Position numbers and translations under genes: made by a program | The notes under the pieces: generated by a model | What the model saw: the letters and a program-made list of their open reading frames with translations, nothing else | Databases searched by the model: none | What the model was told of the DNA's origin: nothing | Part shown: piece by piece, positions 4,702 to 61,456 of the stretch | Layout of the letters: every line of letters starts with the position of its first letter | Numbering within the stretch: the first letter of the stretch is position 1 | Assembly (NCBI RefSeq): GCF_054482525.1 | Contig: NZ_CM137006.1 | Strand: one strand, 5' to 3' | Length of the DNA: 64,000 nt

Positions 4702-6369
4702 GTGGCTCAATTCGTTTATACCATGCATCGTGTCGGCAAAGTTGTTCCGCCGAAACGTCATATTTTGAAAAACATCTCTCTGAGTTTCTTCCCTGGGGCA
4801 AAAATTGGTGTCCTGGGTCTGAACGGCGCGGGTAAGTCCACCCTGCTGCGCATTATGGCGGGCATTGATAAAGACATCGAAGGCGAAGCGCGTCCGCAAC
4901 CGGATATCAAGATTGGTTATCTGCCGCAGGAACCGCAGCTGAACCCGGAACACACCGTGCGTGAGTCCATTGAAGAAGCGGTTTCTGAAGTGGTTAACGC
5001 CCTGAAACGCCTGGATGAAGTGTATGCACTGTACGCCGATCCGGATGCCGATTTTGACAAGCTGGCCGCTGAACAAGGCCGTCTGGAAGAGATCATTCAG
5101 GCTCACGACGGTCACAACCTGAACGTTCAGCTGGAGCGTGCGGCGGATGCGCTGCGTCTGCCGGACTGGGACGCGAAAATCGCTAACCTCTCCGGTGGTG
5201 AGCGTCGTCGCGTGGCGTTGTGCCGCCTGCTGCTGGAAAAACCAGACATGCTGCTGCTCGACGAACCGACCAACCACCTGGATGCCGAATCCGTGGCCTG
5301 GCTGGAACGCTTCCTGCACGACTTCGAAGGCACCGTTGTGGCGATTACCCACGACCGTTACTTCCTTGATAACGTTGCAGGCTGGATCCTCGAACTGGAC
5401 CGCGGTGAAGGTATTCCGTGGGAAGGCAACTACTCCTCCTGGCTGGAGCAGAAAGATCAGCGTCTGGCGCAGGAAGCTTCACAAGAAGCGGCGCGTCGTA
5501 AGTCGATCGAGAAAGAGCTGGAGTGGGTACGTCAGGGGACTAAAGGCCGTCAGTCGAAAGGTAAAGCACGTCTGGCACGCTTTGAAGAGCTGAACAGCAC
5601 CGAATATCAGAAACGTAACGAAACCAACGAACTGTTTATTCCACCAGGACCGCGTCTGGGCGATAAAGTGCTGGAAGTCAGCAATCTGCGTAAATCCTAT
5701 GGCGATCGTCTGCTGATTGACTCCCTGAGCTTCTCGATCCCGAAAGGAGCGATCGTCGGGATCATCGGTCCGAACGGTGCGGGTAAATCGACCCTGTTCC
5801 GTATGATCTCCGGTCAGGAACAGCCGGACAGCGGCACCATCACTCTGGGTGAAACGGTGAAACTGGCATCGGTTGATCAGTTCCGTGACTCAATGGATAA
5901 CAGCAAAACCGTTTGGGAAGAAGTTTCCGGCGGGCTGGATATCATGAAAATCGGCAACACCGAGATGCCAAGCCGCGCCTACGTTGGCCGCTTTAACTTT
6001 AAAGGGGTTGATCAGGGTAAACGCGTTGGTGAACTCTCCGGCGGTGAGCGCGGTCGTCTGCATCTGGCGAAGCTGCTGCAAGTTGGCGGCAACATGCTGC
6101 TGCTCGACGAACCAACCAACGACCTGGATATCGAAACCCTGCGCGCGCTGGAAAACGCCCTGCTGGAGTTCCCGGGCTGCGCGATGGTTATCTCGCACGA
6201 CCGTTGGTTCCTCGACCGTATCGCCACGCACATTCTGGATTACCAGGATGAAGGTAAAGTTGAGTTCTTCGAAGGTAACTTTACCGAGTACGAAGAGTAC
6301 AAGAAACGCACGCTGGGCGCAGACGCGCTGGAGCCGAAGCGTATCAAGTACAAGCGTATTGCGAAGTAA
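4702..6369 (+). CDS. ettA: energy-dependent translational throttle protein EttA (ABC-F ATPase)
   Basis: 555 aa ORF with two ABC ATPase domains (GLNGAGKST... LSGGERRR...; GPNGAGKST... LSGGERGR...). Confidence 0.93.
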   Translation: MAQFVYTMHRVGKVVPPKRHILKNISLSFFPGAKIGVLGLNGAGKSTLLRIMAGIDKDIEGEARPQPDIKIGYLPQEPQLNPEHTVRESIEEAVSEVVNALKRLDEVYALYADPDADFDKLAAEQGRLEEIIQAHDGHNLNVQLERAADALRLPDWDAKIANLSGGERRRVALCRLLLEKPDMLLLDEPTNHLDAESVAWLERFLHDFEGTVVAITHDRYFLDNVAGWILELDRGEGIPWEGNYSSWLEQKDQRLAQEASQEAARRKSIEKELEWVRQGTKGRQSKGKARLARFEELNSTEYQKRNETNELFIPPGPRLGDKVLEVSNLRKSYGDRLLIDSLSFSIPKGAIVGIIGPNGAGKSTLFRMISGQEQPDSGTITLGETVKLASVDQFRDSMDNSKTVWEEVSGGLDIMKIGNTEMPSRAYVGRFNFKGVDQGKRVGELSGGERGRLHLAKLLQVGGNMLLLDEPTNDLDIETLRALENALLEFPGCAMVISHDRWFLDRIATHILDYQDEGKVEFFEGNFTEYEEYKKRTLGADALEPKRIKYKRIAK

Positions 6370-6399
6370 TGCATAAAATGCCGGATGCGGCGCGCCAGC

Positions 6400-6520
6400 A
6401 TCGCATCCGGTATTAGTTAAATGATTAGTCCCCGGAAAAAGGCAGAATTTTCTTTAAGCGTATTAGCTCAGATGCGGACTGACACCTCAAATCAAGCGGG
6501 AACTCATGGTTCCCGCTTAA
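6400..6520. terminator. bidirectional terminator region between convergent ettA and LysR-family gene (REP-like GC hairpin plus second hairpin); approximate
   Basis: gccggatgcggcgcgccagcatcgcatccggt hairpin after ettA stop; aagcgggaactcatggttcccgctt hairpin after LysR gene stop. Confidence 0.5.
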
Positions 6521-6524
6521 CGTT

Positions 6525-7412
6525 TTATTCACCGCGCAAAATCTGGCGGAAATGGGAAACCAGCGGACGTTGGTTGGCTTTATGCCAGGCTGCCCATAAT
6601 TGCGTTGAATAATTCATCCACGGCAATTCACGTAATACCACCCCTTCCGGCGCATTATGACGCAGACTATGTTGAATTAAGGCCAGACCTAATCCCGCAG
6701 CGACCAGACCTAAGGCCGTGAGTGGTTCACCCGCTTCCAGGCGAATATCAGGATTAAACCCGGCGTTAACACAGGCGGCGACAAAATGATCGCGAGAATG
6801 CGCATCGTCGTTATGAATCACCGCAATCCACTGCTCATCGCCAAGTTGTGACGCGACAAGGTTTTCCTCCTGCGCCAGAGGATGATTTTGCGGTAAGGCC
6901 AACAACATTCGATCATCCAGAACCTGAATATATTCCAGATCCTGCTCGCTGTCGGTGGGCGGCGTATCGACCAGAGAAAAATCGAGACTGCGCTGGCGCA
7001 GGCCTTCAATCTGGGTCGCCGGTGGTTGGCTGTAAAGTGCGATATGCACATTCGGACGCGATACACGTAACGTACGTAGCGCCGTAGAAAGCACACCGGA
7101 ATGCATGGCGTTTTCGATATAGCCAATACACAAGCCACCATCTTCCCCCCGTCCCAGGCGTTTGCCTAACGACTCCAGGCGGTTGGCGTGTGTCAGCAAC
7201 GAACGTGTTTCGGCAAGGAATGTCTGTCCATCAGCGGTCAGGCGAATGCGCTGCTGATTACGCTCAAACAGCGTCAGCCCCAGCCGTTCTTCCAGTTGTG
7301 CAATCTGGCGGCTCAGCGGTGATTGCGAGATATGTAATCGCTCGGCTGCGCGTCCCACGTGCTCTTCTTCTGCGACCACCACGAAGTACTTCAGTTGGCG
7401 TAAATCAATCAT
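6525..7412 (-). CDS. LysR-family transcriptional regulator (LTTR), divergent from AKR-SDR-SRPBCC operon
   Basis: ORF 6525..7505; LTTR HTH start MIDLRQLKYFVVVAEEEHVGRAAERLHISQSPLSRQIAQLEERLG at codon 32; ATG with GAGG RBS. Confidence 0.8.
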   Translation of the reverse strand: MIDLRQLKYFVVVAEEEHVGRAAERLHISQSPLSRQIAQLEERLGLTLFERNQQRIRLTADGQTFLAETRSLLTHANRLESLGKRLGRGEDGGLCIGYIENAMHSGVLSTALRTLRVSRPNVHIALYSQPPATQIEGLRQRSLDFSLVDTPPTDSEQDLEYIQVLDDRMLLALPQNHPLAQEENLVASQLGDEQWIAVIHNDDAHSRDHFVAACVNAGFNPDIRLEAGEPLTALGLVAAGLGLALIQHSLRHNAPEGVVLRELPWMNYSTQLWAAWHKANQRPLVSHFRQILRGE

Positions 7413-7458
7413 GTTAGACCTCAAAGGACTTAAGTCAGACGAATTATGTCCTATCAAG

Positions 7459-7482
7459 TCACAACCTCGCAAGGTATTGTGA
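7459..7482. promoter_or_regulatory. candidate LTTR operator TCACAA-N12-TTGTGA in the LysR/AKR divergent intergenic region; approximate
   Basis: interrupted inverted repeat between the divergent start codons (7412 and 7546). Confidence 0.35.
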
Positions 7483-7545
7483 TCCACGTCACAGGGCGAT
7501 AGCAAAAAAATGCCCTAACCCAAACCGAATAATTGAGGACATCTT

Positions 7546-8556
7546 ATGAGCATCAAAAATTTACTTCCCGGCAAAATTGGCTTAGGCGGCGCACCACTCG
7601 GCAACATGTTTCGTGCCATTCCGGAAGACGAGGCCCACGCCACCGTGAGCGAAGCCTGGAACCTGGGCGTGCGTTACTTTGATACCGCGCCGCTGTACGG
7701 CTCTGGCCTTTCTGAAATCCGCATGGGCGAAGCGCTGTCTCAGTATCCACGTGATGAATACGTTCTGAGCAGCAAAGTCGGCCGCATCATGCTGGACGAA
7801 ATGGAAGATCCGGCAAAACGTGATTTCGGTGAAAAAGGTGGCCTGTTCGAACACGGCCTGAAAAACAAAATTCTGAATGACTACTCTGCTGACGCCACGC
7901 TGCGCTCAATTGAAGACAGCCTGAAACGCCTGCAAACAGATCGTCTGGATATTGTCTGGATCCACGACCCGGCGCAGGACTTCTACGGTGACAGCTGGCT
8001 GGAACAGTTCAACATAGCCCGTACCGGTGCGTTTCGTGCGCTGACACGTTTGCGTGACGAAGGTGTGATTAAAGCCTGGGGACTGGGTGTGAATCGCGTC
8101 GAACCTTGCGAACTGACGCTGGCGCTGGACGAACCGAAGCCGGATGCGTTCCTGCTGGCGGGGCGTTATTCCCTGCTGGATCACGAACGTGCGCTGCAAC
8201 GCCTGATGCCAGAAGCACTGGAACAGAACGTGGATATTGTTGTGGGCGGTCCGTACAGCTCTGGCGTACTGGCAGGCGGCGAGCACTTTGAATATCAGAA
8301 AGCTTCTGCGGCCATCCAGCAGAAAGTGGCGCAAATTAACACCATTGCCACACGTTTCAATGTGAACGTTAAAGCAGCTGCGCTGCAGTTCGCGCTGGCA
8401 AACCCGGCCGTTGCGGCGGTTATTCCTGGCTCCAGCCGTCCTGGCCGTATGGCAGAAGATCTGGCCGCACTGAATGCGCCTGTTCCGGCTGAATTCTGGG
8501 CAGAAATGCGCCGTCAAAATCTGGTTGCGGAAAACGCTCCGCTGCCGACCCGTTAA
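7546..8556 (+). CDS. aldo-keto reductase family oxidoreductase
   Basis: 336 aa ORF MSIKNLLPGKIGLGGAPLGNMF...GVRYFDTAPLYGSG...; AKR signature; RBS TGAGGA. Confidence 0.8.
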   Translation: MSIKNLLPGKIGLGGAPLGNMFRAIPEDEAHATVSEAWNLGVRYFDTAPLYGSGLSEIRMGEALSQYPRDEYVLSSKVGRIMLDEMEDPAKRDFGEKGGLFEHGLKNKILNDYSADATLRSIEDSLKRLQTDRLDIVWIHDPAQDFYGDSWLEQFNIARTGAFRALTRLRDEGVIKAWGLGVNRVEPCELTLALDEPKPDAFLLAGRYSLLDHERALQRLMPEALEQNVDIVVGGPYSSGVLAGGEHFEYQKASAAIQQKVAQINTIATRFNVNVKAAALQFALANPAVAAVIPGSSRPGRMAEDLAALNAPVPAEFWAEMRRQNLVAENAPLPTR

Positions 8557-8575
8557 TCAACCTGGTGAGAAAACG

Positions 8576-9373
8576 ATGAAACTGGATCTGACAGGTAAAG
8601 TCGCGGTGGTCAGCGGCTCAACCTCCGGCATTGGGCAGGGTATCGCCGCCGGACTGGCAAAAGCAGGCGCAACGGTGGTTGTCGTCGGCCGTAAACAGAG
8701 CGGCGTTGATGACGCCATGGCTGCGATTGCGGCACAAACCCCCACAGCGTCACTGCGCGGCGTGGTGGCGGATCTCAGCACCGAAGACGGCGTGGCTGCG
8801 CTGATCGCTGCAGTCCCAACGGCTGATGTGCTGGTCAATAATCTGGGCATTTTTAACGATAAAGATTTCTTTAGCGTTCCGGATGATGAGTGGATGCACT
8901 TCTATAACGTCAACGTCCTCTCCGGCGTTCGTCTGGCGCGTCACTATGCGCCAGGCATGACGGAACAGGGCTGGGGGCGGATTATTTTTGTCTCGTCCGA
9001 ATCCGGCGTGGCAATCCCTGGCGACATGATCAACTACGGCGTCACCAAAGCCGCGAATCTGGCGGTTTCTCATGGTCTGGCGAAACGACTGGCGGGGACC
9101 GGTGTGACCGTCAACGCCATACTGCCAGGGCCAACCTTTACCGATGGCCTGAAAGAGATGCTGGCGGATGCCGCTGCACAATCGGGACGCAGTGCGCGTG
9201 AACAGGCCGATGAGTTTGTTAAAACCTCGCGTCCGAGCTCCATCATCCAGCGTGCGGCGGATGTGGAAGAAGTAGCGAATCTGGCGGTTTATCTCGCGTC
9301 ACCGCTTTCCTCGGCAACCACAGGGGCAGCCCTGCGCGTCGATGGCGGTGTCGTCGACACCCTGACTATGTAA
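8576..9373 (+). CDS. short-chain dehydrogenase/reductase (SDR) family oxidoreductase
   Basis: ORF 8474..9373; Rossmann motif start MKLDLTGKVAVVSGSTSGIGQGIA at ATG 8576 with GGTGAG RBS; YxxxK-type catalytic region. Confidence 0.8.
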   Translation: MKLDLTGKVAVVSGSTSGIGQGIAAGLAKAGATVVVVGRKQSGVDDAMAAIAAQTPTASLRGVVADLSTEDGVAALIAAVPTADVLVNNLGIFNDKDFFSVPDDEWMHFYNVNVLSGVRLARHYAPGMTEQGWGRIIFVSSESGVAIPGDMINYGVTKAANLAVSHGLAKRLAGTGVTVNAILPGPTFTDGLKEMLADAAAQSGRSAREQADEFVKTSRPSSIIQRAADVEEVANLAVYLASPLSSATTGAALRVDGGVVDTLTM

Positions 9374-9398
9374 CCCTATAAATTAAGAGAAAATTATC

Positions 9399-9815
9399 AT
9401 GGCTAAAACAACTGTATCGATCGAAATTCCGGCTTCTACCGACGCCGTATGGCAATTGATGGGCGGCTTTGATGCGCTGCCAGACTGGCTGCCGTTCATC
9501 CCGAAAAGCGTAGTGACAGAAGGCGGTCGCGTTCGTTCGCTGACAACCTCTGACGGCGGCACTGTGGTTGAACGTCTGGAAGCGTTTGATAACCGTCAAC
9601 GCAGTTATACCTATTCCATTATTCAGGCACCGTTCCCGGTGGTGGATTACCTCTCCACCATTACCGTTCATGAAACCGCCGACAGCCAGGTTTCCCGTGT
9701 GGAATGGTTCGGTGAATTCACCCCGGTGAATGTGACGAACGAAGAGGCCGAAGCGCTGTTTACCGGCATCTATCGGGATGGTCTCAAGGCGCTGAAGGAC
9801 AACTTTGTTGCCTGA
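9399..9815 (+). CDS. SRPBCC (Bet v1-like / polyketide cyclase-dehydrase fold) family protein
   Basis: 138 aa ORF MAKTTVSIEIPASTDAVWQLMGGFDALPDWLPF...; 25 bp after SDR gene, likely same operon. Confidence 0.65.
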   Translation: MAKTTVSIEIPASTDAVWQLMGGFDALPDWLPFIPKSVVTEGGRVRSLTTSDGGTVVERLEAFDNRQRSYTYSIIQAPFPVVDYLSTITVHETADSQVSRVEWFGEFTPVNVTNEEAEALFTGIYRDGLKALKDNFVA

Positions 9816-9972
9816 TGCAATCGACAGGCGTCGGAACGTCCGGCGTCTGATTATTAACAAAATCAGAATAGTCTATTGTCATTTGTATCATTTATGTTAT
9901 CAGGCAGCAGGCGTATTCTCTCCCCATCGCGTTAATAAACGCCAAACAATTAAGACACTCTGGAATATAAAC

Positions 9973-10185
9973 ATGAAAACGATCATCGCAATTTTTACAG
10001 CTTCTCTTTTCTCTGTCGCGGCGTTTAACGCATCGGCGCAAAGCGTGACAGCAACCGGTACAACACTGGATTCCGCTGAAGCGGTTATTGCGCAGAAAGC
10101 GAAAGAGATGAACGCCTCTGAATATAAAATTACCAGCGCTCGCATGGGCAATACCGTCACCATGAGTGCCGAACTGTATAAATAA
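9973..10185 (+). CDS. small secreted DUF1471 (YdgH/BhsA/McbA-like) stress protein
   Basis: 70 aa, signal peptide MKTIIAIFTASLFSVAAFNASA then ...ASEYKITSARMGNTVTMSAELYK typical of the family. Confidence 0.6.
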   Translation: MKTIIAIFTASLFSVAAFNASAQSVTATGTTLDSAEAVIAQKAKEMNASEYKITSARMGNTVTMSAELYK

Positions 10186-10233
10186 TCGCGCGAGGGACCC
10201 ATTACGTAATTTGCTAAATATGCGCTGAATGCG

Positions 10234-10520
10234 TTGCCATTAATAAACCGTATTGTAATGCCACCGATGACGCGTTCCCGCGCGGGTGACGTTGCGACTG
10301 ACATAATGGCGGACTATTACGCGCAGCGCGCCAGTGCTGGACTTTTCATTAGCGAAGGTACGCAAATCAGCAGAAGCGCTGCGCATAATTTTCCACGGCA
10401 CGCTGATTTACTCCGGTAAAGACACCAAAGCGCGCGCCGAACAGGCGCTGGCTAACGGCTAGTCGGATCTGATTGGATTTGGTCGTCCGTATAGTGCCAA
10501 AAGCGGAAGTTGGTAGTTTC
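10234..10520 (+). pseudogene. remnant of an Old Yellow Enzyme (NemA-like NADH:flavin oxidoreductase) gene with large internal deletion and premature stops
   Basis: ORF 10234..10419 INRIVMPPMTRSRAGDV...MADYYAQRASAGLFISEGTQIS matches OYE N-terminus; downstream ...GKDTKARAEQALANG*SDLIGFGRP matches OYE C-terminal region; intervening ~280 codons missing. Confidence 0.55.
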
Positions 10521-10612
10521 AGCCTATGTTGATAAACGGGGAGCCGGTCAGCACGTAAAGAGATTTTTTTGTACTGCTATGGCCCGATCAAAAATCGATT
10601 GAGCCGAATGTG

Positions 10613-10984
10613 CTAGCTATCTCCGAAGATAATTTTTTCGAGCTCCTGCAAGTCCTGCTGTGATTGCTCGTTAAGGTTAGCCTCTAACTTGTCGTACCAT
10701 GTAAGCAGTTTCTTGCCAAGTGGTGTCAAAACCGAGCCTCCACCTTTACTGCCGCCTGTTGATGTAATTACCACCGGCTTACCTATGCCTTTATTGAGTG
10801 TATCAATCAGGAGCCACGCCCTTTTATAGGGGATTCCCAGATCTTTTGCGGCAGCTGAAAGGGAATGAAACCCATCTATAGCTCGTAAAAGATCGATTTT
10901 CCCCGGTCCCAGCGAGATATTGTCATTAATGTAGATTCGGGGTCTGACCAAAATAAAATCAAACATAAGCGTTTTTTTATTCAT
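10613..10984 (-). CDS. ModE N-terminal-domain-like winged-helix transcriptional regulator (no TOBE domains)
   Basis: ORF 10613..11002; MNKKTLMFDF...IDLLRAIDGFHSLSAAAKDLGIPYKRAWLLIDTLNKGIGKPVVITSTGGSKGGGSVLTPLGKKLL; ATG 10984 preceded by GGAG. Confidence 0.65.
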   Translation of the reverse strand: MNKKTLMFDFILVRPRIYINDNISLGPGKIDLLRAIDGFHSLSAAAKDLGIPYKRAWLLIDTLNKGIGKPVVITSTGGSKGGGSVLTPLGKKLLTWYDKLEANLNEQSQQDLQELEKIIFGDS

Positions 10985-11009
10985 TCTGAGAACTCCGTGC
11001 AAAGTATTT

Positions 11010-11816
11010 TTATCGGGTGTGTTTGAAAGTTTTGATGGCAGAAATAAGAAGGATCACACCAAGTAAAGTCATAAGGGCTTTAAGTGGGAACAAGCCGACC
11101 ATAAGTCCACCAATTGCTGCACCAATTACTGAACCAATAACCATCCATACAAACAGTGTCCTTTCTTGCTTCAGAATCAGGAAAGCATCTGCATTTATAT
11201 AACGGGAAAAGCCAACAATCATTGTTGGCAGGCTAATCATCAGTGAAAGACTTCCGGCCAGTTTAATATCTGCCCCGAAAAGGATAACGATTGTGGGGAT
11301 AAGAAGCTCTCCGCCAGCCACTCCGAGCAATGCTGCGACTATCCCGATAAAGCCCCCTGATACCACCCCCACAATAATCATGGCAAGGCCAGGTTGAAAT
11401 AACCCGCCTGAAATACTGTGCAACGGCATCCAGGCTTCAGAGAGCATGACAAAAGACAGTAAAACAAGCAGGATCAGAATGATTCTGTCCAGCCAGATTC
11501 TGGACATCTTTATGGCACGACCTGCGGCCCACCATGCTCCAATAAGACTTCCTGCCAGCAAATTTATGACAATATCAAGATGCGCCACCAACTGATCAAA
11601 AGATATAGATTTTGTTCGGAAAATTAAAGCAATAGCCACCACGGCGAGACTCATTGCTTTGTTAAAAATGACGGCTTCCAGAGAAGGGATTTTGAAACTA
11701 CCGATCAGTACGGGAAGGCGAAATTCAGCCCCTCCGAGGCCAATCAACCCACCTAAAGCCCCTATTACCGCGCCTGAGAAAAAACCTTTACCATTCCTGT
11801 TTGAAACTGACGACAT
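11010..11816 (-). CDS. TauE/SafE (DUF81) family anion (sulfite/sulfonate-type) exporter, integral membrane
   Basis: 268 aa highly hydrophobic ORF with Gly-rich TM helices (GALGGLIGLGGAEF..., GVAGGELLIPTIVILF...); GAGAGGA RBS. Confidence 0.8.
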   Translation of the reverse strand: MSSVSNRNGKGFFSGAVIGALGGLIGLGGAEFRLPVLIGSFKIPSLEAVIFNKAMSLAVVAIALIFRTKSISFDQLVAHLDIVINLLAGSLIGAWWAAGRAIKMSRIWLDRIILILLVLLSFVMLSEAWMPLHSISGGLFQPGLAMIIVGVVSGGFIGIVAALLGVAGGELLIPTIVILFGADIKLAGSLSLMISLPTMIVGFSRYINADAFLILKQERTLFVWMVIGSVIGAAIGGLMVGLFPLKALMTLLGVILLISAIKTFKHTR

Positions 11817-11833
11817 GCGTTCCTCTCTAATTC

Positions 11834-11855
11834 GTTATGTCTTTTTTGACATAAC
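11834..11855. promoter_or_regulatory. perfect inverted repeat GTTATGTC-TTTTTT-GACATAAC just upstream of the TauE RBS (candidate operator or 5'-UTR hairpin); approximate
   Basis: 8-bp perfect arms, 6-nt T spacer, ~18-39 bp upstream of TauE start. Confidence 0.5.
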
Positions 11856-12000
11856 GACAAGCATAGCATTGCAGAACAGGCGTCTGGTAGTTGCTTGTAA
11901 AGACGAGGATTGATCCAGGTTAAAATTTATTCTATTAACCTGCTCTCCGTTGTTTAACACACCACGATTTATGTGATGCTTTCATGAGAAATTAAAACAA

Positions 12001-12207
12001 CTAAGAACTTCCGCTTCTCGCTCGAAGCGGACTGTCAGATTTGATTGCATTCTGGCTACGCAACTGGTCGGTTGGAATATGAAGTTGCTCACGAATAGCC
12101 TTAGCATCCGCAATTTCGTAGCGGGTCACCCGTGCAGGTTCTTTTAAACCTTGTTTAATCTCAACAGCCTCTTCCAGAGAGGTTTTCAACTTATCAAAAA
12201 AACTCAT
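12001..12207 (-). CDS. small ORF with N-terminal similarity to HigA/MqsA-type antitoxins but lacking the HTH; possible gene remnant
   Basis: 68 aa MSFFDKLKTSLEEAVEIKQGLKEPARVTRYEIADAKAIREQLHIPTDQ...; expected HTH helix absent in all frames downstream. Confidence 0.35.
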   Translation of the reverse strand: MSFFDKLKTSLEEAVEIKQGLKEPARVTRYEIADAKAIREQLHIPTDQLRSQNAIKSDSPLRARSGSS

Positions 12208-12240
12208 TTTATACCTCGCCTTTGAGCCGTTTCGTCACGG

Positions 12241-56820: not shown

Positions 56821-58383
56821 ATGAAACCAGAAGATTTCCGCGCCAGTACCCAACGTCCGTTCACCGGGGAAGAGTATCTGAAAAGCCTGCAGGATGGTCG
56901 AGAGATCTATATCTATGGCGAGCGAGTGAAAGACGTCACCACTCATCCGGCATTTCGTAATGCGGCAGCGTCTGTTGCCCAACTGTACGACGCGCTACAC
57001 AAACCGGAGATGCAGGACTCTCTGTGTTGGAACACCGACACCGGCAGCGGCGGCTATACCCATAAATTCTTCCGCGTGGCGAAAAGTGCCGACGACCTGC
57101 GCCAGCAACGCGACGCCATCGCTGAGTGGTCACGCCTGAGCTATGGCTGGATGGGCCGTACCCCAGACTACAAAGCTGCTTTCGGTTGCGCACTGGGCGC
57201 GAATCCGGGCTTTTACGGTCAGTTCGAGCAGAACGCCCGTAACTGGTACACCCGTATTCAGGAAACTGGCCTCTACTTTAACCACGCGATTGTTAACCCA
57301 CCGATCGATCGTCATTTGCCGACCGATAAAGTAAAAGACGTTTACATCAAGCTGGAAAAAGAGACTGACGCCGGGATTATCGTCAGCGGTGCGAAAGTGG
57401 TTGCCACCAACTCGGCGCTGACTCACTACAACATGATTGGCTTCGGCTCGGCACAAGTGATGGGCGAAAACCCGGACTTCGCACTGATGTTCGTTGCGCC
57501 AATGGATGCCGATGGCGTGAAATTAATCTCCCGCGCCTCTTATGAGATGGTCGCGGGTGCTACCGGCTCGCCGTACGACTACCCGCTCTCCAGCCGCTTC
57601 GATGAGAACGATGCGATTCTGGTGATGGATAACGTGCTGATCCCATGGGAAAACGTGCTGATCTACCGCGATTTTGATCGCTGCCGTCGCTGGACGATGG
57701 AAGGCGGTTTCGCCCGTATGTATCCGCTGCAAGCCTGTGTGCGCCTGGCAGTGAAATTAGACTTCATTACGGCACTGCTGAAAAAATCACTCGAATGTAC
57801 CGGCACCCTGGAGTTCCGTGGCGTGCAGGCCGATCTCGGTGAAGTGGTGGCGTGGCGCAACACCTTCTGGGCATTGAGTGACTCGATGTGTTCAGAAGCA
57901 ACGCCGTGGGTCAACGGGGCTTATTTACCGGATCATGCCGCACTGCAAACCTATCGCGTACTGGCACCAATGGCCTACGCGAAGATCAAAAACATTATCG
58001 AACGCAACGTTACCAGTGGCCTGATCTATCTCCCTTCCAGTGCCCGTGACCTGAACAATCCGCAGATCGACCAGTATCTGGCGAAGTATGTGCGCGGTTC
58101 GAATGGTATGGATCACGTCCAGCGCATCAAGATCCTCAAACTGATGTGGGATGCCATTGGCAGCGAATTTGGTGGTCGTCACGAACTGTATGAAATCAAC
58201 TACTCCGGTAGCCAGGATGAGATTCGCCTGCAGTGTCTGCGCCAGGCACAAAGCTCCGGCAATATGGACAAGATGATGGCGATGGTTGATCGCTGCCTGT
58301 CGGAATACGACCAGAACGGCTGGACTGTGCCGCACCTGCACAACAACGACGATATCAACATGCTGGATAAGCTGCTGAAATAA
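56821..58383 (+). CDS. hpaB: 4-hydroxyphenylacetate 3-monooxygenase, oxygenase component
   Basis: 520 aa ORF MKPEDFRASTQRPFTGEEYLKSLQDGREIYIYGERVKDVTTHPAFRNAA... Confidence 0.92.
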   Translation: MKPEDFRASTQRPFTGEEYLKSLQDGREIYIYGERVKDVTTHPAFRNAAASVAQLYDALHKPEMQDSLCWNTDTGSGGYTHKFFRVAKSADDLRQQRDAIAEWSRLSYGWMGRTPDYKAAFGCALGANPGFYGQFEQNARNWYTRIQETGLYFNHAIVNPPIDRHLPTDKVKDVYIKLEKETDAGIIVSGAKVVATNSALTHYNMIGFGSAQVMGENPDFALMFVAPMDADGVKLISRASYEMVAGATGSPYDYPLSSRFDENDAILVMDNVLIPWENVLIYRDFDRCRRWTMEGGFARMYPLQACVRLAVKLDFITALLKKSLECTGTLEFRGVQADLGEVVAWRNTFWALSDSMCSEATPWVNGAYLPDHAALQTYRVLAPMAYAKIKNIIERNVTSGLIYLPSSARDLNNPQIDQYLAKYVRGSNGMDHVQRIKILKLMWDAIGSEFGGRHELYEINYSGSQDEIRLQCLRQAQSSGNMDKMMAMVDRCLSEYDQNGWTVPHLHNNDDINMLDKLLK

Positions 58384-58400
58384 CGCAGCAGGAGGTTAAG

Positions 58401-58913
58401 ATGCAATTAGATGAACAACGCCTGCGCTTTCGTGACGCAATGGCCAGCCTGTCGGCAGCGGTAAATATTATCACCACCGAGGGCAACGCCGGGCAATGCG
58501 GGATTACGGCAACGGCTGTCTGCTCGGTCACGGATACACCACCGTCGCTGATGGTGTGCATTAACGCCAACAGTGCGATGAACCCGGTTTTTCAGGGCAA
58601 CGGTAAGTTGTGCGTCAACGTCCTCAACCATGAGCAGGAACTGATGGCACGCCACTTCGCGGGCATGACAGGCATGGCGATGGAAGAGCGTTTTAGCCTC
58701 TCATGCTGGCAAAAAGGTCCGCTGGCGCAGCCGGTGCTAAAAGGTTCGCTGGCCAGTCTTGAAGGTGAGATCCGCGATGTGCAGGCAATTGGCACACATC
58801 TGGTGTATCTGGTGGAGATTAAAAACATCATCCTCAGTGCAGAAGGTCACGGACTTATCTACTTTAAACGCCGTTTCCATCCGGTGATGCTGGAAATGGA
58901 AGCTGCGATTTAA
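58401..58913 (+). CDS. hpaC: 4-hydroxyphenylacetate 3-monooxygenase, flavin reductase component
   Basis: 170 aa ORF MQLDEQRLRFRDAMASLSAAVNIITTEGNAGQCGITATAVCSVTDTPPSLMVCIN...; GGAGG RBS. Confidence 0.9.
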   Translation: MQLDEQRLRFRDAMASLSAAVNIITTEGNAGQCGITATAVCSVTDTPPSLMVCINANSAMNPVFQGNGKLCVNVLNHEQELMARHFAGMTGMAMEERFSLSCWQKGPLAQPVLKGSLASLEGEIRDVQAIGTHLVYLVEIKNIILSAEGHGLIYFKRRFHPVMLEMEAAI

Positions 58914-58954: not shown

Positions 58955-58970
58955 TGTGATCTCAATCACA
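58955..58970. promoter_or_regulatory. CRP (cAMP receptor protein) consensus site TGTGA-N6-TCACA upstream of btsT; approximate
   Basis: tgtgatctcaatcaca, perfect match to both CRP half-sites. Confidence 0.7.
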
Positions 58971-59288: not shown

Positions 59289-59305
59289 AAATGCCAGGTT
59301 TTACT

Positions 59306-61456
59306 ATGGATACGAAAAAACTATTCAAGCACATACCCTGGGTGATTCTCGGAATCATCGGTGCATTCTGCCTCGCGGTAGTTGCATTACGTCGGGGGGA
59401 GCACGTCAGCGCCCTGTGGATCGTGGTCGCCTCTGTGTCGGTGTATCTGGTGGCTTATCGCTACTACAGTCTGTACATCGCCCAGAAGGTGATGAAACTC
59501 GACCCCACGCGCGCGACGCCTGCGGTTATTAACAACGACGGTCTGAACTACGTTCCGACCAACCGTTACGTGTTGTTTGGTCACCACTTCGCCGCTATCG
59601 CCGGTGCTGGTCCGCTGGTTGGACCGGTTCTCGCCGCGCAGATGGGCTACCTGCCTGGCACGCTGTGGCTGCTGGCGGGGGTCGTGCTGGCCGGTGCGGT
59701 TCAGGACTTTATGGTGCTGTTTATCTCCTCTCGCCGTAACGGCGCATCTCTCGGTGAGATGATCAAAGAAGAGATGGGACCAGTACCGGGGACTATCGCG
59801 CTGTTTGGCTGTTTCTTAATCATGATCATCATCCTCGCCGTCCTGGCGCTGATTGTGGTTAAAGCCCTGGCCGAAAGTCCGTGGGGTGTCTTCACCGTTT
59901 GCTCAACCGTACCGATTGCGCTGTTTATGGGTATCTACATGCGCTTTATCCGTCCGGGGCGTGTGGGTGAAGTCTCTGTCATTGGTATCGTGCTGCTGGT
60001 TGCCTCTATCTACTTCGGTGGCGTGATTGCTCACGATCCGTACTGGGGTCCGGCACTGACCTTTAAAGACACCACCATTACCTTCGCGCTGATTGGCTAT
60101 GCGTTTGTTTCCGCACTGCTGCCGGTGTGGCTGATCCTCGCACCGCGCGACTATCTGGCAACCTTCCTGAAAATCGGTGTTATCGTCGGCCTGGCGCTGG
60201 GTATCGTGGTGCTGAACCCGGAACTGAAAATGCCTGCGATGACCCAGTACATTGACGGTACTGGCCCGCTGTGGAAAGGCGCTCTGTTCCCGTTCCTGTT
60301 CATCACCATCGCCTGTGGTGCGGTATCTGGCTTCCACGCACTGATCTCTTCCGGTACGACACCGAAACTGCTGGCTAATGAAACCGACGCGCGTTTCATT
60401 GGCTACGGCGCAATGCTGATGGAGTCCTTCGTGGCGATTATGGCGCTGGTTGCTGCGTCCATCATCGAACCGGGTCTTTACTTCGCGATGAACACCCCGC
60501 CTGCTGGCCTCGGCATCACCATGCCTAACCTGCATGAAATGGGTGGCGAGAACGCGCCGATCATCATGGCGCAGCTGAAAGACGTTACCGCACACGCGGC
60601 AGCGACCGTCAGCTCCTGGGGCTTCGTGATTTCGCCAGAGCAGATCCTGCAAACCGCGAAAGACATTGGTGAGCCTTCTGTCCTGAACCGTGCAGGTGGT
60701 GCGCCGACGCTGGCGGTAGGTATCGCTCACGTGTTCCACAAAGTGCTGCCGATGGCTGACATGGGCTTCTGGTATCACTTCGGTATTCTGTTCGAAGCCC
60801 TGTTCATCCTGACCGCGCTGGATGCGGGTACCCGTTCTGGCCGCTTTATGCTGCAAGACCTGCTGGGTAACTTTATCCCGTTCCTGAAAAAAACCGACTC
60901 TCTGGTTGCTGGTATCATCGGTACTGCGGGCTGTGTGGGTCTGTGGGGCTACCTGCTGTATCAGGGCGTGGTCGATCCGCTGGGCGGCGTTAAGAGCCTG
61001 TGGCCGCTGTTCGGTATCTCCAACCAGATGCTGGCAGCCGTGGCGCTGGTACTGGGTACCGTTGTGCTGATTAAGATGAAGCGCACCCAATACATCTGGG
61101 TAACTGTTGTTCCGGCTGTATGGCTGCTTATCTGCACCACCTGGGCGCTGGGCCTGAAACTGTTCAGCACCAACCCGCAGATGGAAGGCTTCTTCTACAT
61201 GGCAAGCCAGTACAAAGAGAAGATTGCTAACGGTACTGACCTGACGGCGCAGCAGATTGCCAACATGAACCACATCGTTGTGAACAACTACACCAACGCA
61301 GGCCTGAGTATTCTGTTCCTGATTGTGGTGTACAGCATCATCTTCTACGGTTTCAAAACCTGGCTTGCGGTGCGTAACAGCGACAAACGTACTGACAAAG
61401 AAACACCGTACGTTCCAATCCCGGAAGGCGGCGTGAAGATCTCTTCGCACCACTAA
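59306..61456 (+). CDS. btsT: CstA-family pyruvate/H+ symporter BtsT (YjiY)
   Basis: ORF 59291..61456; MDTKKLFKHIPWVILGIIGAFCLAVVALRRGEHVSALWIVVASVSVYLVAYRYYS... from codon 6; polytopic membrane protein. Confidence 0.9.
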   Translation: MDTKKLFKHIPWVILGIIGAFCLAVVALRRGEHVSALWIVVASVSVYLVAYRYYSLYIAQKVMKLDPTRATPAVINNDGLNYVPTNRYVLFGHHFAAIAGAGPLVGPVLAAQMGYLPGTLWLLAGVVLAGAVQDFMVLFISSRRNGASLGEMIKEEMGPVPGTIALFGCFLIMIIILAVLALIVVKALAESPWGVFTVCSTVPIALFMGIYMRFIRPGRVGEVSVIGIVLLVASIYFGGVIAHDPYWGPALTFKDTTITFALIGYAFVSALLPVWLILAPRDYLATFLKIGVIVGLALGIVVLNPELKMPAMTQYIDGTGPLWKGALFPFLFITIACGAVSGFHALISSGTTPKLLANETDARFIGYGAMLMESFVAIMALVAASIIEPGLYFAMNTPPAGLGITMPNLHEMGGENAPIIMAQLKDVTAHAAATVSSWGFVISPEQILQTAKDIGEPSVLNRAGGAPTLAVGIAHVFHKVLPMADMGFWYHFGILFEALFILTALDAGTRSGRFMLQDLLGNFIPFLKKTDSLVAGIIGTAGCVGLWGYLLYQGVVDPLGGVKSLWPLFGISNQMLAAVALVLGTVVLIKMKRTQYIWVTVVPAVWLLICTTWALGLKLFSTNPQMEGFFYMASQYKEKIANGTDLTAQQIANMNHIVVNNYTNAGLSILFLIVVYSIIFYGFKTWLAVRNSDKRTDKETPYVPIPEGGVKISSHH

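Follow-up and report, generated by a model that had tools for sequence, protein, structure and literature searches.

Enzymes of the D-threo-aldose 1-dehydrogenase type oxidize the C1 lactol of L-fucose, D-arabinose, L-xylose, L-galactose or L-glucose (PMC10079672). An aldo-keto reductase (AKR) that appears to belong to the same lineage is encoded in the cassette analyzed here, which occupies positions 6525–9815 of a 64,000-nt stretch (the window) of contig NZ_CM137006.1 in assembly GCF_054482525.1. The cassette consists of a LysR-type regulator gene on the minus strand (6525–7412, 295 aa, PF00126 and PF03466) and three plus-strand genes for the AKR (7546–8556, 336 aa, PF00248), a short-chain dehydrogenase/reductase (SDR; 8576–9373, 265 aa, PF00106/PF13561) and an SRPBCC-family protein (9399–9815, 138 aa, PF10604). 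The conserved core of the cassette is the AKR–SRPBCC gene pair with its divergent LysR gene. We propose, with a probability of about 40%, that it is an inducible accessory operon for the oxidation of a lactol or hydroxy-carbonyl compound, activated by LysR and modulated by CRP in enterics.

The cassette AKR has the fold and the Asp-Tyr-Lys-His tetrad of D-threo-aldose 1-dehydrogenase/L-fucose dehydrogenase (EC 1.1.1.122), such as Pseudomonas sp. 1143 Fdh, which we take to be an AKR, and of L-galactose dehydrogenase (L-GalDH; 7SMI, 8SCC, 7EZI). It differs from the aldose dehydrogenases in sequence, with an identity of at most 46% and a sharp gap between the clades. The settings also differ. The aldose-dehydrogenase relatives are accompanied by FucU, an Amidohydro_2 lactonase, an enolase-type dehydratase, transporters and IclR or GntR regulators, whereas the cassette AKR clade is accompanied only by SRPBCC and LysR.

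The bacterial relatives of the SRPBCC protein with solved structures, B. cereus "XoxI" (PDB 3CNW) and B. thuringiensis Q6HG14 (3F08), are structural-genomics deposits with no assigned function, and the Bacillus loci carry neither LysR nor SDR. Onion lachrymatory factor synthase (LFS), the fern hydroxynitrile lyase (HNL) DtHNL and the PYR/PYL/RCAR receptors of abscisic acid (ABA) have the helix-grip fold in common with the cassette protein, at an identity of only 19–24%. In LFS and HNL, Arg/Tyr residues serve proton shuttling on an X-OH group (bioRxiv 10.1101/142687, PMC5413884). In contrast to these two enzymes, the cassette protein has no sulfenic-acid or cyanohydrin context; it is bacterial, cytosolic and dehydrogenase-linked. 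The neopinone isomerase of opium poppy, presumably a PR10-family protein, offers a functional analogy. This Bet v1-fold enzyme supplies the right carbonyl isomer to codeinone reductase, an AKR (PMC8524200). The analogy goes no further, since the poppy enzymes belong to a plant alkaloid pathway and to unrelated subfamilies, form no operon and are homologous in fold only.

Among described regulators, BenM/CatM with ben/cat, AlsR with alsSD, and ItcR resemble the cassette LysR in their HTH_1 and LysR_substrate domains and, as far as the predicted promoters and candidate sites of the cassette go, in divergent overlapping promoters and in conserved sites at approximately −65 to −35 of the target promoter. 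The cassette LysR is about 30% identical to them or less, and its operator/promoter block is unusually conserved across phyla.

Each component superfamily is thus known already, and LysR-controlled oxidoreductase operons are commonplace. The obligate AKR–SRPBCC pairing, its extreme cross-phylum conservation together with regulator and operator, and a PYL/LFS-branch partner with an intact triad are undescribed in the literature searched. RefSeq and protein-cluster names were generic ("LysR substrate-binding domain-containing protein", "aldo/keto reductase", "SDR family", "SRPBCC family"). Full-text literature on the cassette, its accessions and its PDB relatives yielded no functional description, and the PDB codes led only to the structure paper of 8G9M. 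This agrees with a previous reading made from the sequence only (the sequence-only reading), which did not recognize the cassette as a named E. coli pathway. PADLOC, which searches for anti-phage defense systems, was negative for all four proteins.

Gene Linkage across Phyla

The scan used one genome per species, with the SRPBCC alignment as query. Relatives were found in 522 species, the best 80 loci were kept, and the neighbors in these loci were assigned by tblastn. In 74 of the 80 loci, across four phyla, the AKR gene was the immediate 5′ neighbor of an SRPBCC gene that pointed in the same direction; Bacillus, Paenibacillus, Streptomyces, Flavobacterium and Mucilaginibacter were among these. 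The gap between the AKR stop and the SRPBCC start was mostly 13–44 nt. A divergent LysR gene was present in 59/80 loci, in Proteobacteria and Actinobacteria, with a protein identity of 62–96% (62–75% in the cross-phylum comparison). Identity to the E. coli protein was 67–96% for the AKR (67–76% in Bacillus, Streptomyces and Flavobacterium) and 58–91% for the SRPBCC protein (58–68% in the cross-phylum comparison). The pair is common in Klebsiella, where single sequence clusters occur on at least 1000 contigs, and it is also found in Acinetobacter baumannii, the Bacillus cereus group, Pseudomonas and Streptomyces.

The SDR gene was present in 41/80 loci; Enterobacterales, Pseudomonas and Acinetobacter are the only groups in which it separates AKR from SRPBCC. 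It was missing from 36 of the 74 AKR–SRPBCC loci. The SDR is an optional gammaproteobacterial insert, and the three-gene operon of the sequence-only reading is not the evolutionary unit. The cassette was found in other Enterobacteriaceae, and the AKR–SRPBCC linkage reaches far beyond them. Clustering of all open reading frames (ORFs) of the 80 loci showed nothing in common beyond the four genes, and the remainder was lineage-specific synteny.

Firmicutes and Bacteroidota carry the bare AKR–SRPBCC pair, in some cases on plasmids, flanked by insertion sequence (IS) elements or group II introns. Non-chromosomal carriage was mostly on megaplasmids or chromids. True plasmids were few, so plasmid carriage is only suggestive of mobility and was rejected as proof of it. 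A tandem array AKR-AKR-SRPBCC-AKR-SRPBCC was present in Paenibacillus sp. BSR1-1 (L037:4921-8897). Pseudomonas strains without the AKR keep an SDR–SRPBCC pair, and on an Azotobacter plasmid a 37%-identical SRPBCC gene is placed after a medium-chain dehydrogenase and an SDR gene. The SRPBCC family evidently travels with NAD(P)-dependent dehydrogenases.

Some loci showed further features. Sporosarcina has an additional upstream SRPBCC copy (L046:5457-5867), which is a pseudogene with 3 stop codons in its translation. Group II introns are close to the loci with extra copies in Paenibacillus and Sporosarcina. An Rfam scan of ten Firmicute loci, in which a riboswitch was sought 5′ of the LysR-less AKR gene, found group II introns only. 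Eleven LysR-less Firmicute loci have 2–3 tandem boxes TACTTnnnAGT(G/A)C approximately 100–260 bp upstream of the AKR gene, directly 5′ of a CATAAT −10 element, and no Rfam family matches these boxes. The loci of the B. cereus group have a leader ORF of 25–35 codons (..LKSIY.IF.N.R.L..). A 2.1-kb contig of a "Collinsella sp." metagenome-assembled genome (JAIJJM010000574.1) had 99–100% protein identity to the E. coli SDR-SRPBCC-DUF1471 segment, and it is almost certainly a misbinned Escherichia contig.

Operon Structure in the Window

The three plus-strand genes are tightly spaced and divergent from lysR, as had been noted from the sequence, and Pfam upheld all domain calls. The gaps are 19 nt between AKR and SDR and 25 nt between SDR and SRPBCC. 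The true start of lysR is the ATG at 7412–7410, whereas the mechanical ORF extends to a TTG at 7505, and the lysR–AKR intergenic region (7413–7545) is 133 bp long. Every gene had been credited with its own ribosome-binding site. This was confirmed for the AKR gene, which alone has a strong Shine-Dalgarno sequence (GAGGA, 7535–7539); the starts of SDR and SRPBCC are preceded by weaker purine-rich runs.

The plus strand of 7546–9815 contained no promoter-like or terminator-like site. The operon may end in a weak terminator, for which a modest plus-strand hairpin at 9828..9846, followed by UGAUUAUU as a U-rich tail, is the candidate (RNAfold z = −2.75 for 9812–9880). Since there is no internal plus-strand signal and a hairpin follows the SRPBCC gene, co-transcription of the three genes is plausible.

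The Reductase and Its Sister Clades

The (β/α)8 domain of the AKR matched PF00248 at residues 10–322 (E 1.2e-44). The catalytic tetrad D46/Y51/K77/H140 was invariant in 38 orthologues and aligned with the FDT..Y, K and H-D motifs of L-GalDH. The best PDB matches were plant L-galactose dehydrogenases (E 5e-30 to 3e-34), aligned in two pieces. In a search of 1.84 billion cluster representatives, the whole AKR orthogroup fell into a single cluster at 50% identity, and no full-length relative outside it was more than 46% identical. The single cluster and the sharp drop mark a discrete, tightly constrained family. In IMG, the cluster with the orthogroup representative and two sister clusters at 44–46% bear the label D-threo-aldose 1-dehydrogenase, which is an automatic label.

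The sister AKR genes were found in the following contexts. In L087, the order is ABC transporter, FucU mutarotase, AKR and Amidohydro_2 lactonase. In L085 and L086, an IclR gene adjoins genes for an enolase-superfamily (MR_MLE) dehydratase, an AKR and an SDR. L090 and L091 have AKR and lactonase genes together with GntR, a DHDPS-type aldolase and a sugar-binding protein. Two contexts are not sugar-like; L088 is an operon with SDR and aminotransferase genes, and in L092 the AKR gene is unlinked. The informative sister contexts are oxidative, non-phosphorylative L-fucose-type sugar pathways, and they contained no SRPBCC gene. A 138-aa ORF beside the sister-clade AKR of L090 was considered as an SRPBCC gene and rejected (hhalign probability 0.1%). 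Judged from these comparisons, the cassette AKR appears to be of the aldose-1-dehydrogenase/L-galactose-dehydrogenase lineage, with no close characterized member or curated model.

The SDR has the motifs GSTSGIG, NNLG, SSES and YGVTK in its translation and matches PF00106 and PF13561, which makes it a classical SDR. An Arg-Lys pair after strand 2 suggests NADP(H) as cofactor. The protein is an orthologue of the A. baumannii structure 8G9M (UniProt A0A0D5YL95, E 9e-138), which is listed with the B. anthracis SDR 3T4X as the closest known SDR structures. The 8G9M protein is a classical tetrameric SDR, structurally nearest to the NADPH-sorbose reductase of Gluconobacter; according to the structure paper, which does not deal with the operon, its natural substrate is unknown (PMC10889901). 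The nearest characterized SDR relatives are sorbose reductase and the 3-hydroxybutyrate and glucose dehydrogenases.

The SRPBCC Partner

The SRPBCC protein has a helix-grip (Bet v1) fold and matches PF10604 ("Polyketide_cyc2"). It is 62% identical to B. cereus "XoxI", of which B. thuringiensis 3F08 is a close homologue. A profile of 40 SRPBCC orthologues matched the PYL receptors of ABA and onion LFS. No polyketide aromatase/cyclase was among the profile matches at E ≤ 1e-3. The values in the comparison table were 24.6 for XoxI, 19.7 for YPO0625, 19.2 for PYL9, 17.9 for LFS, 17.8 for the fern hydroxynitrile lyase and 16–17.7 for aromatase/cyclases. The likeness to the TcmN, ZhuI and WhiE-type cyclases is at the level of the fold only. 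The SRPBCC protein is assigned by these matches to a PYR/PYL/LFS-like branch and is not a polyketide cyclase.

The hhalign alignment (96% probability) placed R46/E58/Y84 of the SRPBCC protein on R71/E88/Y114 of LFS and Y72 on Y102. In the HMMER alignment, R46/E58/Y84, a triad on strands 3, 4 and 6, fell on Arg, Glu and Tyr of PYL9. Six residues (R44, R46, E58, Y70, Y72 and Y84) were invariant across phyla in the 40 sequences. The Lys that binds the ABA carboxylate in PYLs, which we take to be K59 in PYR1 numbering, is replaced by an invariant Leu31, so the SRPBCC protein is not an ABA receptor.

R71/E88/Y114 are key catalytic residues of onion LFS, which works by intramolecular proton shuttling, and the same Arg-Glu-Tyr triad is conserved in PYL receptors without ligand contact (bioRxiv 10.1101/142687). 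In DtHNL, the catalytic center Arg69/Tyr101 deprotonates a C-OH group and releases a carbonyl (PMC5413884). Residue spacing, and not an alignment, suggests that Arg69/Tyr101 correspond to R46/Y72 of the SRPBCC protein. Catalysis by the SRPBCC protein is plausible on the strength of these residues. A toxin–antitoxin reading of the protein was rejected, the match to the Rv0910 toxin model (E 3e-4 over 33 residues) being far under the cut-off.

Regulator and Intergenic Region

The LysR protein contains PF00126 at residues 4–63 (E 4e-24) and PF03466 at residues 88–293 (E 1e-38). It scored below the cut-off of every named NCBIfam model for LysR-type transcriptional regulators, GltC and BenM/CatM included (AlsR as the best, 223 vs. 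430 bits; XapR-like PRK09986, 207 vs. 290; HcaR, 162 vs. 356). Its best solved relatives are ItcR (7W06, E 1e-36) and BenM/CatM. These regulators sense carboxylic acids; ItcR senses itaconate, and BenM/CatM presumably respond to benzoate and muconate.

The anchored comparison of 50 distinct lysR–AKR intergenic regions revealed a block of approximately 65 bp (7417–7480) beside lysR, which is kept with fixed spacing from E. coli to Streptomyces (Proteobacteria and Actinobacteria). Its consensus is AGACCTc.a.GGACTcAAGT....C..ATTATGTCtTggac.GTC..A....cgCAa.cTA...T. The block contains the lysR Shine-Dalgarno sequence CCTC (7419–7422, minus strand) and a GGAC-N18-GTCC dyad (7426–7451). The predicted lysR promoter on the minus strand has a −10 element CATAAT (7448–7443) and a −35 element TTGCGA (7472–7467), and it was the sole promoter-like match in the region (9/12 positions). 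The AKR promoter on the plus strand would use TATCAA (7452–7457) as −35, which is TGGACA in most other taxa, and TATTGT (7475–7480) as −10, which is TAnnnT in all taxa. Transcription of the AKR gene is predicted to start near 7487. Candidate LysR binding sites lie inside the block, and the layout looks typical of a LysR activator that represses its own gene. No canonical T-N11-A LysR box could be assigned convincingly in it.

The inverted repeat TCACAA-N12-TTGTGA that had been noticed in the intergenic region is real and is located at 7459–7482. The left arm lies in the conserved GTC..A element, whereas the right arm doubles as the left half-site of a CRP core. For the 64-kb window, 0.12 matches were expected with one mismatch allowed, and at least one match occurred in 12/100 shuffles; the repeat is therefore unremarkable as a pattern and not beyond chance. 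The two arms vary independently, the right arm being ATGTGA in E. coli E69 and Klebsiella and the left arm TCATAA in Klebsiella and TCCTAA in Yersinia. A role of the repeat as the LysR operator is not supported, since the arms are not co-conserved, the repeat is a composite with a CRP half-site, and the cross-phylum block lies further towards lysR.

A perfect CRP-type core, TGTGA-N6-TCACA (TGTGATCCACGTCACA), is located at 7478–7493 (center 7485.5) and overlaps the right arm of the repeat. The window contains two copies of this core, vs. 0.06 expected. Both half-sites were kept, with five different spacers, in 10/10 loci of Escherichia, Trabulsiella, Yokenella, Klebsiella, Raoultella and Yersinia. 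The core was absent from the Serratia, Ewingella, Providencia, Acinetobacter and Pseudomonas loci compared. We also considered a class II CRP promoter that would start near 7527 and dropped it, the required −10 element not being conserved among the loci with the core. The second perfect core of the window, TGTGATCTCAATCACA, is located at 58955–58970, between the genes for an hpaC-like flavin reductase (58401–58913) and a 721-aa CstA-family transporter (59291–61456). We take it to be probably the CRP-dependent btsT/yjiY promoter region, and it therefore serves as an informal positive control for the CRP pattern.

Just after the predicted AKR start, a small plus-strand hairpin AGGGC-N14-GCCCT (7493..7516, RNAfold) lies in the predicted leader. 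Klebsiella, Providencia, Acinetobacter and Pseudomonas (GGTCA...TGACC) also form a leader stem at this position, of other sequence (L008, L014, L020, L024–L081). The stems recur and their z-scores are weak, and the hairpin was not adopted as a conserved RNA element. A second leader hairpin, TCCC-N4/5-GGGA, lies farther downstream in Klebsiella, Yersinia and Raoultella. In five Pseudomonas loci, the AKR leader contains a palindromic insertion of approximately 100 bp (TGTAGGAGCCGGCTTGC...GCAAGCCGGCTCCTACA), which looks like a repetitive extragenic palindromic (REP-type) element.

Proposed Function and Alternatives

In the proposed oxidative operon, LysR would bind the block 7417–7480 and repress its own back-to-back promoter. 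With a small molecule bound as inducer, it would activate the AKR promoter, which has a poor −35 element and the TAnnnT −10 element. The putative cAMP-CRP site added in Enterobacteriaceae and Yersinia (7478–7493) may tie expression to carbon status, be it by activation or by repression. The AKR would be the core catalyst. Its substrate is most likely a small polar compound, either sugar-like or a hydroxy-carbonyl, whose hemiacetal (lactol) carbon it would oxidize with NAD(P)+ to give a lactone or acid. As its obligate partner, the SRPBCC protein probably acts on the same molecule through a buried Arg46-Glu58-Tyr84 proton-shuttle site. Ring opening or closing, interconversion of anomers or tautomers, and handling of the lactone product are its candidate roles, in which it would fill the place of the mutarotase or lactonase found beside the sister AKRs. 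The SDR, where present, may perform a second oxidoreduction at a secondary alcohol or ketone.

We speculate further that AKR–SRPBCC is a self-contained, horizontally mobile two-enzyme unit, carried with LysR and the operator from Actinobacteria to Enterobacteriaceae. The PYL/LFS-like SRPBCC protein would then be a true catalyst (lactol-opening/anomerizing or lactone/tautomer-isomerizing) that uses Arg46-Glu58-Tyr84 and non-orthologously replaces the FucU mutarotase or the lactonase. This extension as a whole is doubtful. If it is true, it would give the "XoxI" family its first enzymatic function and bacteria a new type of Bet v1-fold reaction. The model of an oxidative operon, if it holds, would assign a function to a very widespread gene pair and a biochemical context to 3CNW, 3F08 and 8G9M, and it would show bacterial relatives of plant ABA receptors and onion LFS working with a dehydrogenase. 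Once the inducer is known, the cross-phylum regulator and promoter block would be a portable biosensor chassis.

Several points weigh against an oxidative sugar-like role. No NCBIfam model reached its cut-off for the AKR, and at an identity of 46% or less to its aldose-dehydrogenase-like relatives, its substrate and even its direction could differ. LysR regulators are unusual in sugar pathways, and the sister AKR clades use IclR or GntR. No transporter, mutarotase, lactonase, dehydratase or aldolase accompanies the module in the 80 loci, so it is not a complete catabolic route. The Arg-Glu-Tyr triad is no proof of catalysis, since it does not touch the ligand in PYLs. Counted from the predicted transcription starts, the center of the CRP core is at approximately −1.5 for AKR and −49.5 for lysR, and neither is among the canonical positions (−41.5, −61.5 or −71.5). 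The tandem copies in Paenibacillus, the IS and plasmid association in Firmicutes and the enteric DUF1471 and Old Yellow Enzyme (OYE) neighbors fit a detoxification role equally well or better.

Such a role is the main rival, which we regard as possible but rather unlikely. The AKR, with the SDR, would reduce a reactive carbonyl or electrophile at the expense of NAD(P)H, for instance a dicarbonyl, a quinone-like toxin, a lactol-type mycotoxin or an unsaturated aldehyde. The SRPBCC protein would bind or isomerize this compound, and LysR would sense it. A minimal two-gene module without transporter or downstream pathway would suit this task. Methylglyoxal reductase YdjG was the weak best NCBIfam match of the AKR, and the Arg-Lys pair of the SDR points to NADPH. 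In Enterobacterales, the DUF1471 stress-protein gene is a neighbor, as is an OYE alkene reductase gene that is intact in E69, Yokenella and Providencia. However, the near AKR relatives with informative context are all oxidative sugar dehydrogenases, and a conserved CRP core is atypical of detoxification genes. The OYE gene has decayed in most E. coli carriers while the cassette is intact, so there is no functional tie between them. The regulators linked to the module include none that is thiol-based or senses electrophiles. If the cassette encodes an ordinary promiscuous carbonyl reductase, the finding is routine.

A second alternative concerns the SRPBCC protein only. It would be non-enzymatic and would carry or sequester the substrate or product, or else modulate the AKR, in the manner of PYL receptors and PR10 proteins. 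Most characterized Bet v1-fold proteins bind ligands, and the PYL receptors, whose Arg-Glu-Tyr residues are conserved without ligand contact, are the closest characterized sequence relatives. On the other side, the Lys of the PYLs for the ABA carboxylate has given way to Leu31, and the extreme cross-phylum identity, with six invariant polar residues (Arg, Glu and Tyr), suits an active site better. LFS and HNL, of the same Pfam family, have Arg/Tyr-based catalytic centers, the match of R46/E58/Y84 being aligned for LFS only. We consider a purely binding role unlikely.

The sequence-only reading had called the cassette typical of aromatic, quinone or polyketide-like modification. Such a cassette would join two ketoreductases to a Bet v1-like cyclase or binder, as in the tailoring of type II polyketides. 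The Pfam name "Polyketide_cyc2" supports this at the level of the fold only, and the regulator relatives BenM/CatM and HcaR sense aromatic-derived acids. This reading is very improbable in view of the sugar-lactol dehydrogenases related to the AKR, the sugar and hydroxy-acid enzymes related to the SDR, and the PYL and LFS matches of the SRPBCC protein. Genes for ketosynthase, chain length factor and acyl carrier protein (KS/CLF/ACP), oxygenases and ring cleavage were found in 0/80 loci, and the module can do without the SDR.

The cassette could also be what is left of a horizontally acquired island that is in decay and has no present function in E. coli, and the patchy carriage, the IS1397 flank and the truncated downstream OYE and nadS genes could speak for this. 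The idea can practically be dismissed in the face of four complete ORFs with catalytic motifs and strong cross-phylum conservation, which are intact in E. coli carriers as described below.

Carriage in E. coli and Neighboring Genes

A 3.5-kb stretch with the cassette was 100% identical to the chromosome of E. coli PCN033. The cassette was carried by 482 of 5426 complete E. coli genomes (approximately 9%), always on the chromosome, in a single copy and at 98–100% identity. Query coverage was at least 80% in 481 of the 482 carriers, and the genes were annotated as intact coding sequences in every match listed. The cassette of PCN033 is located between ettA and nadR. In E. coli DH1, a K-12 derivative, ettA is directly beside nadS-nadR, with merely about 107 bp plus nadS at the cassette site; the cassette is therefore part of an accessory island of approximately 5.6 kb. 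The island was inserted between the ettA terminator (region 6370–6524) and a truncated nadS (12001–12240). A symmetric GC-rich hairpin with an 11-bp stem (6494..6518) is a terminator-like site between the convergent ettA (ending at 6369) and lysR (6525), and it is likely the bidirectional terminator and left edge of the island. The cassette thus marks an accessory trait of 9% frequency at the ettA–nadR junction, which may reflect a niche-specific substrate or toxin.

IS1397 adjoins lysR in other E. coli carriers and flanks the island in many strains. The order yjjV-IS1397-lysR in E. coli 2021CK-01784 indicates an IS-mediated rearrangement. In E. coli E69 and E. whittamii, there is no ettA in the 4 kb upstream of the cassette.

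Downstream of the operon, after a gap of 157 bp, a gene for a small periplasmic stress protein of the DUF1471 family (YhcN/BhsA/RclB-like) is located at 9973–10185. It is found beside the cassette in most Enterobacterales loci and not outside that order. An N-terminal remnant of a NemA-like OYE/alkene reductase gene follows at 10234–10419. The intact OYE gene (365 aa; L003:7806-8903) lies 3′ of the cassette in E. coli E69, Yokenella and Providencia, and it is truncated in PCN033 and the other inspected E. coli carriers.

A ModE-like winged-helix gene (10613–10987) and a TauE/SafE sulfite-exporter-family gene (11010–11816) are located farther downstream, both on the minus strand. The GC content of this region (10613–11816) is 43–45%, vs. 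53–58% in the cassette. The whole stretch 9816–12240 was found in just 20/5426 E. coli genomes and is therefore a secondary insertion, which took the place of most of the OYE gene. The same window contains genes for a 4-hydroxyphenylacetate 3-monooxygenase (hpaB and hpaC-like, 56821–58913), which we take to be another accessory catabolic cluster that is not in K-12.

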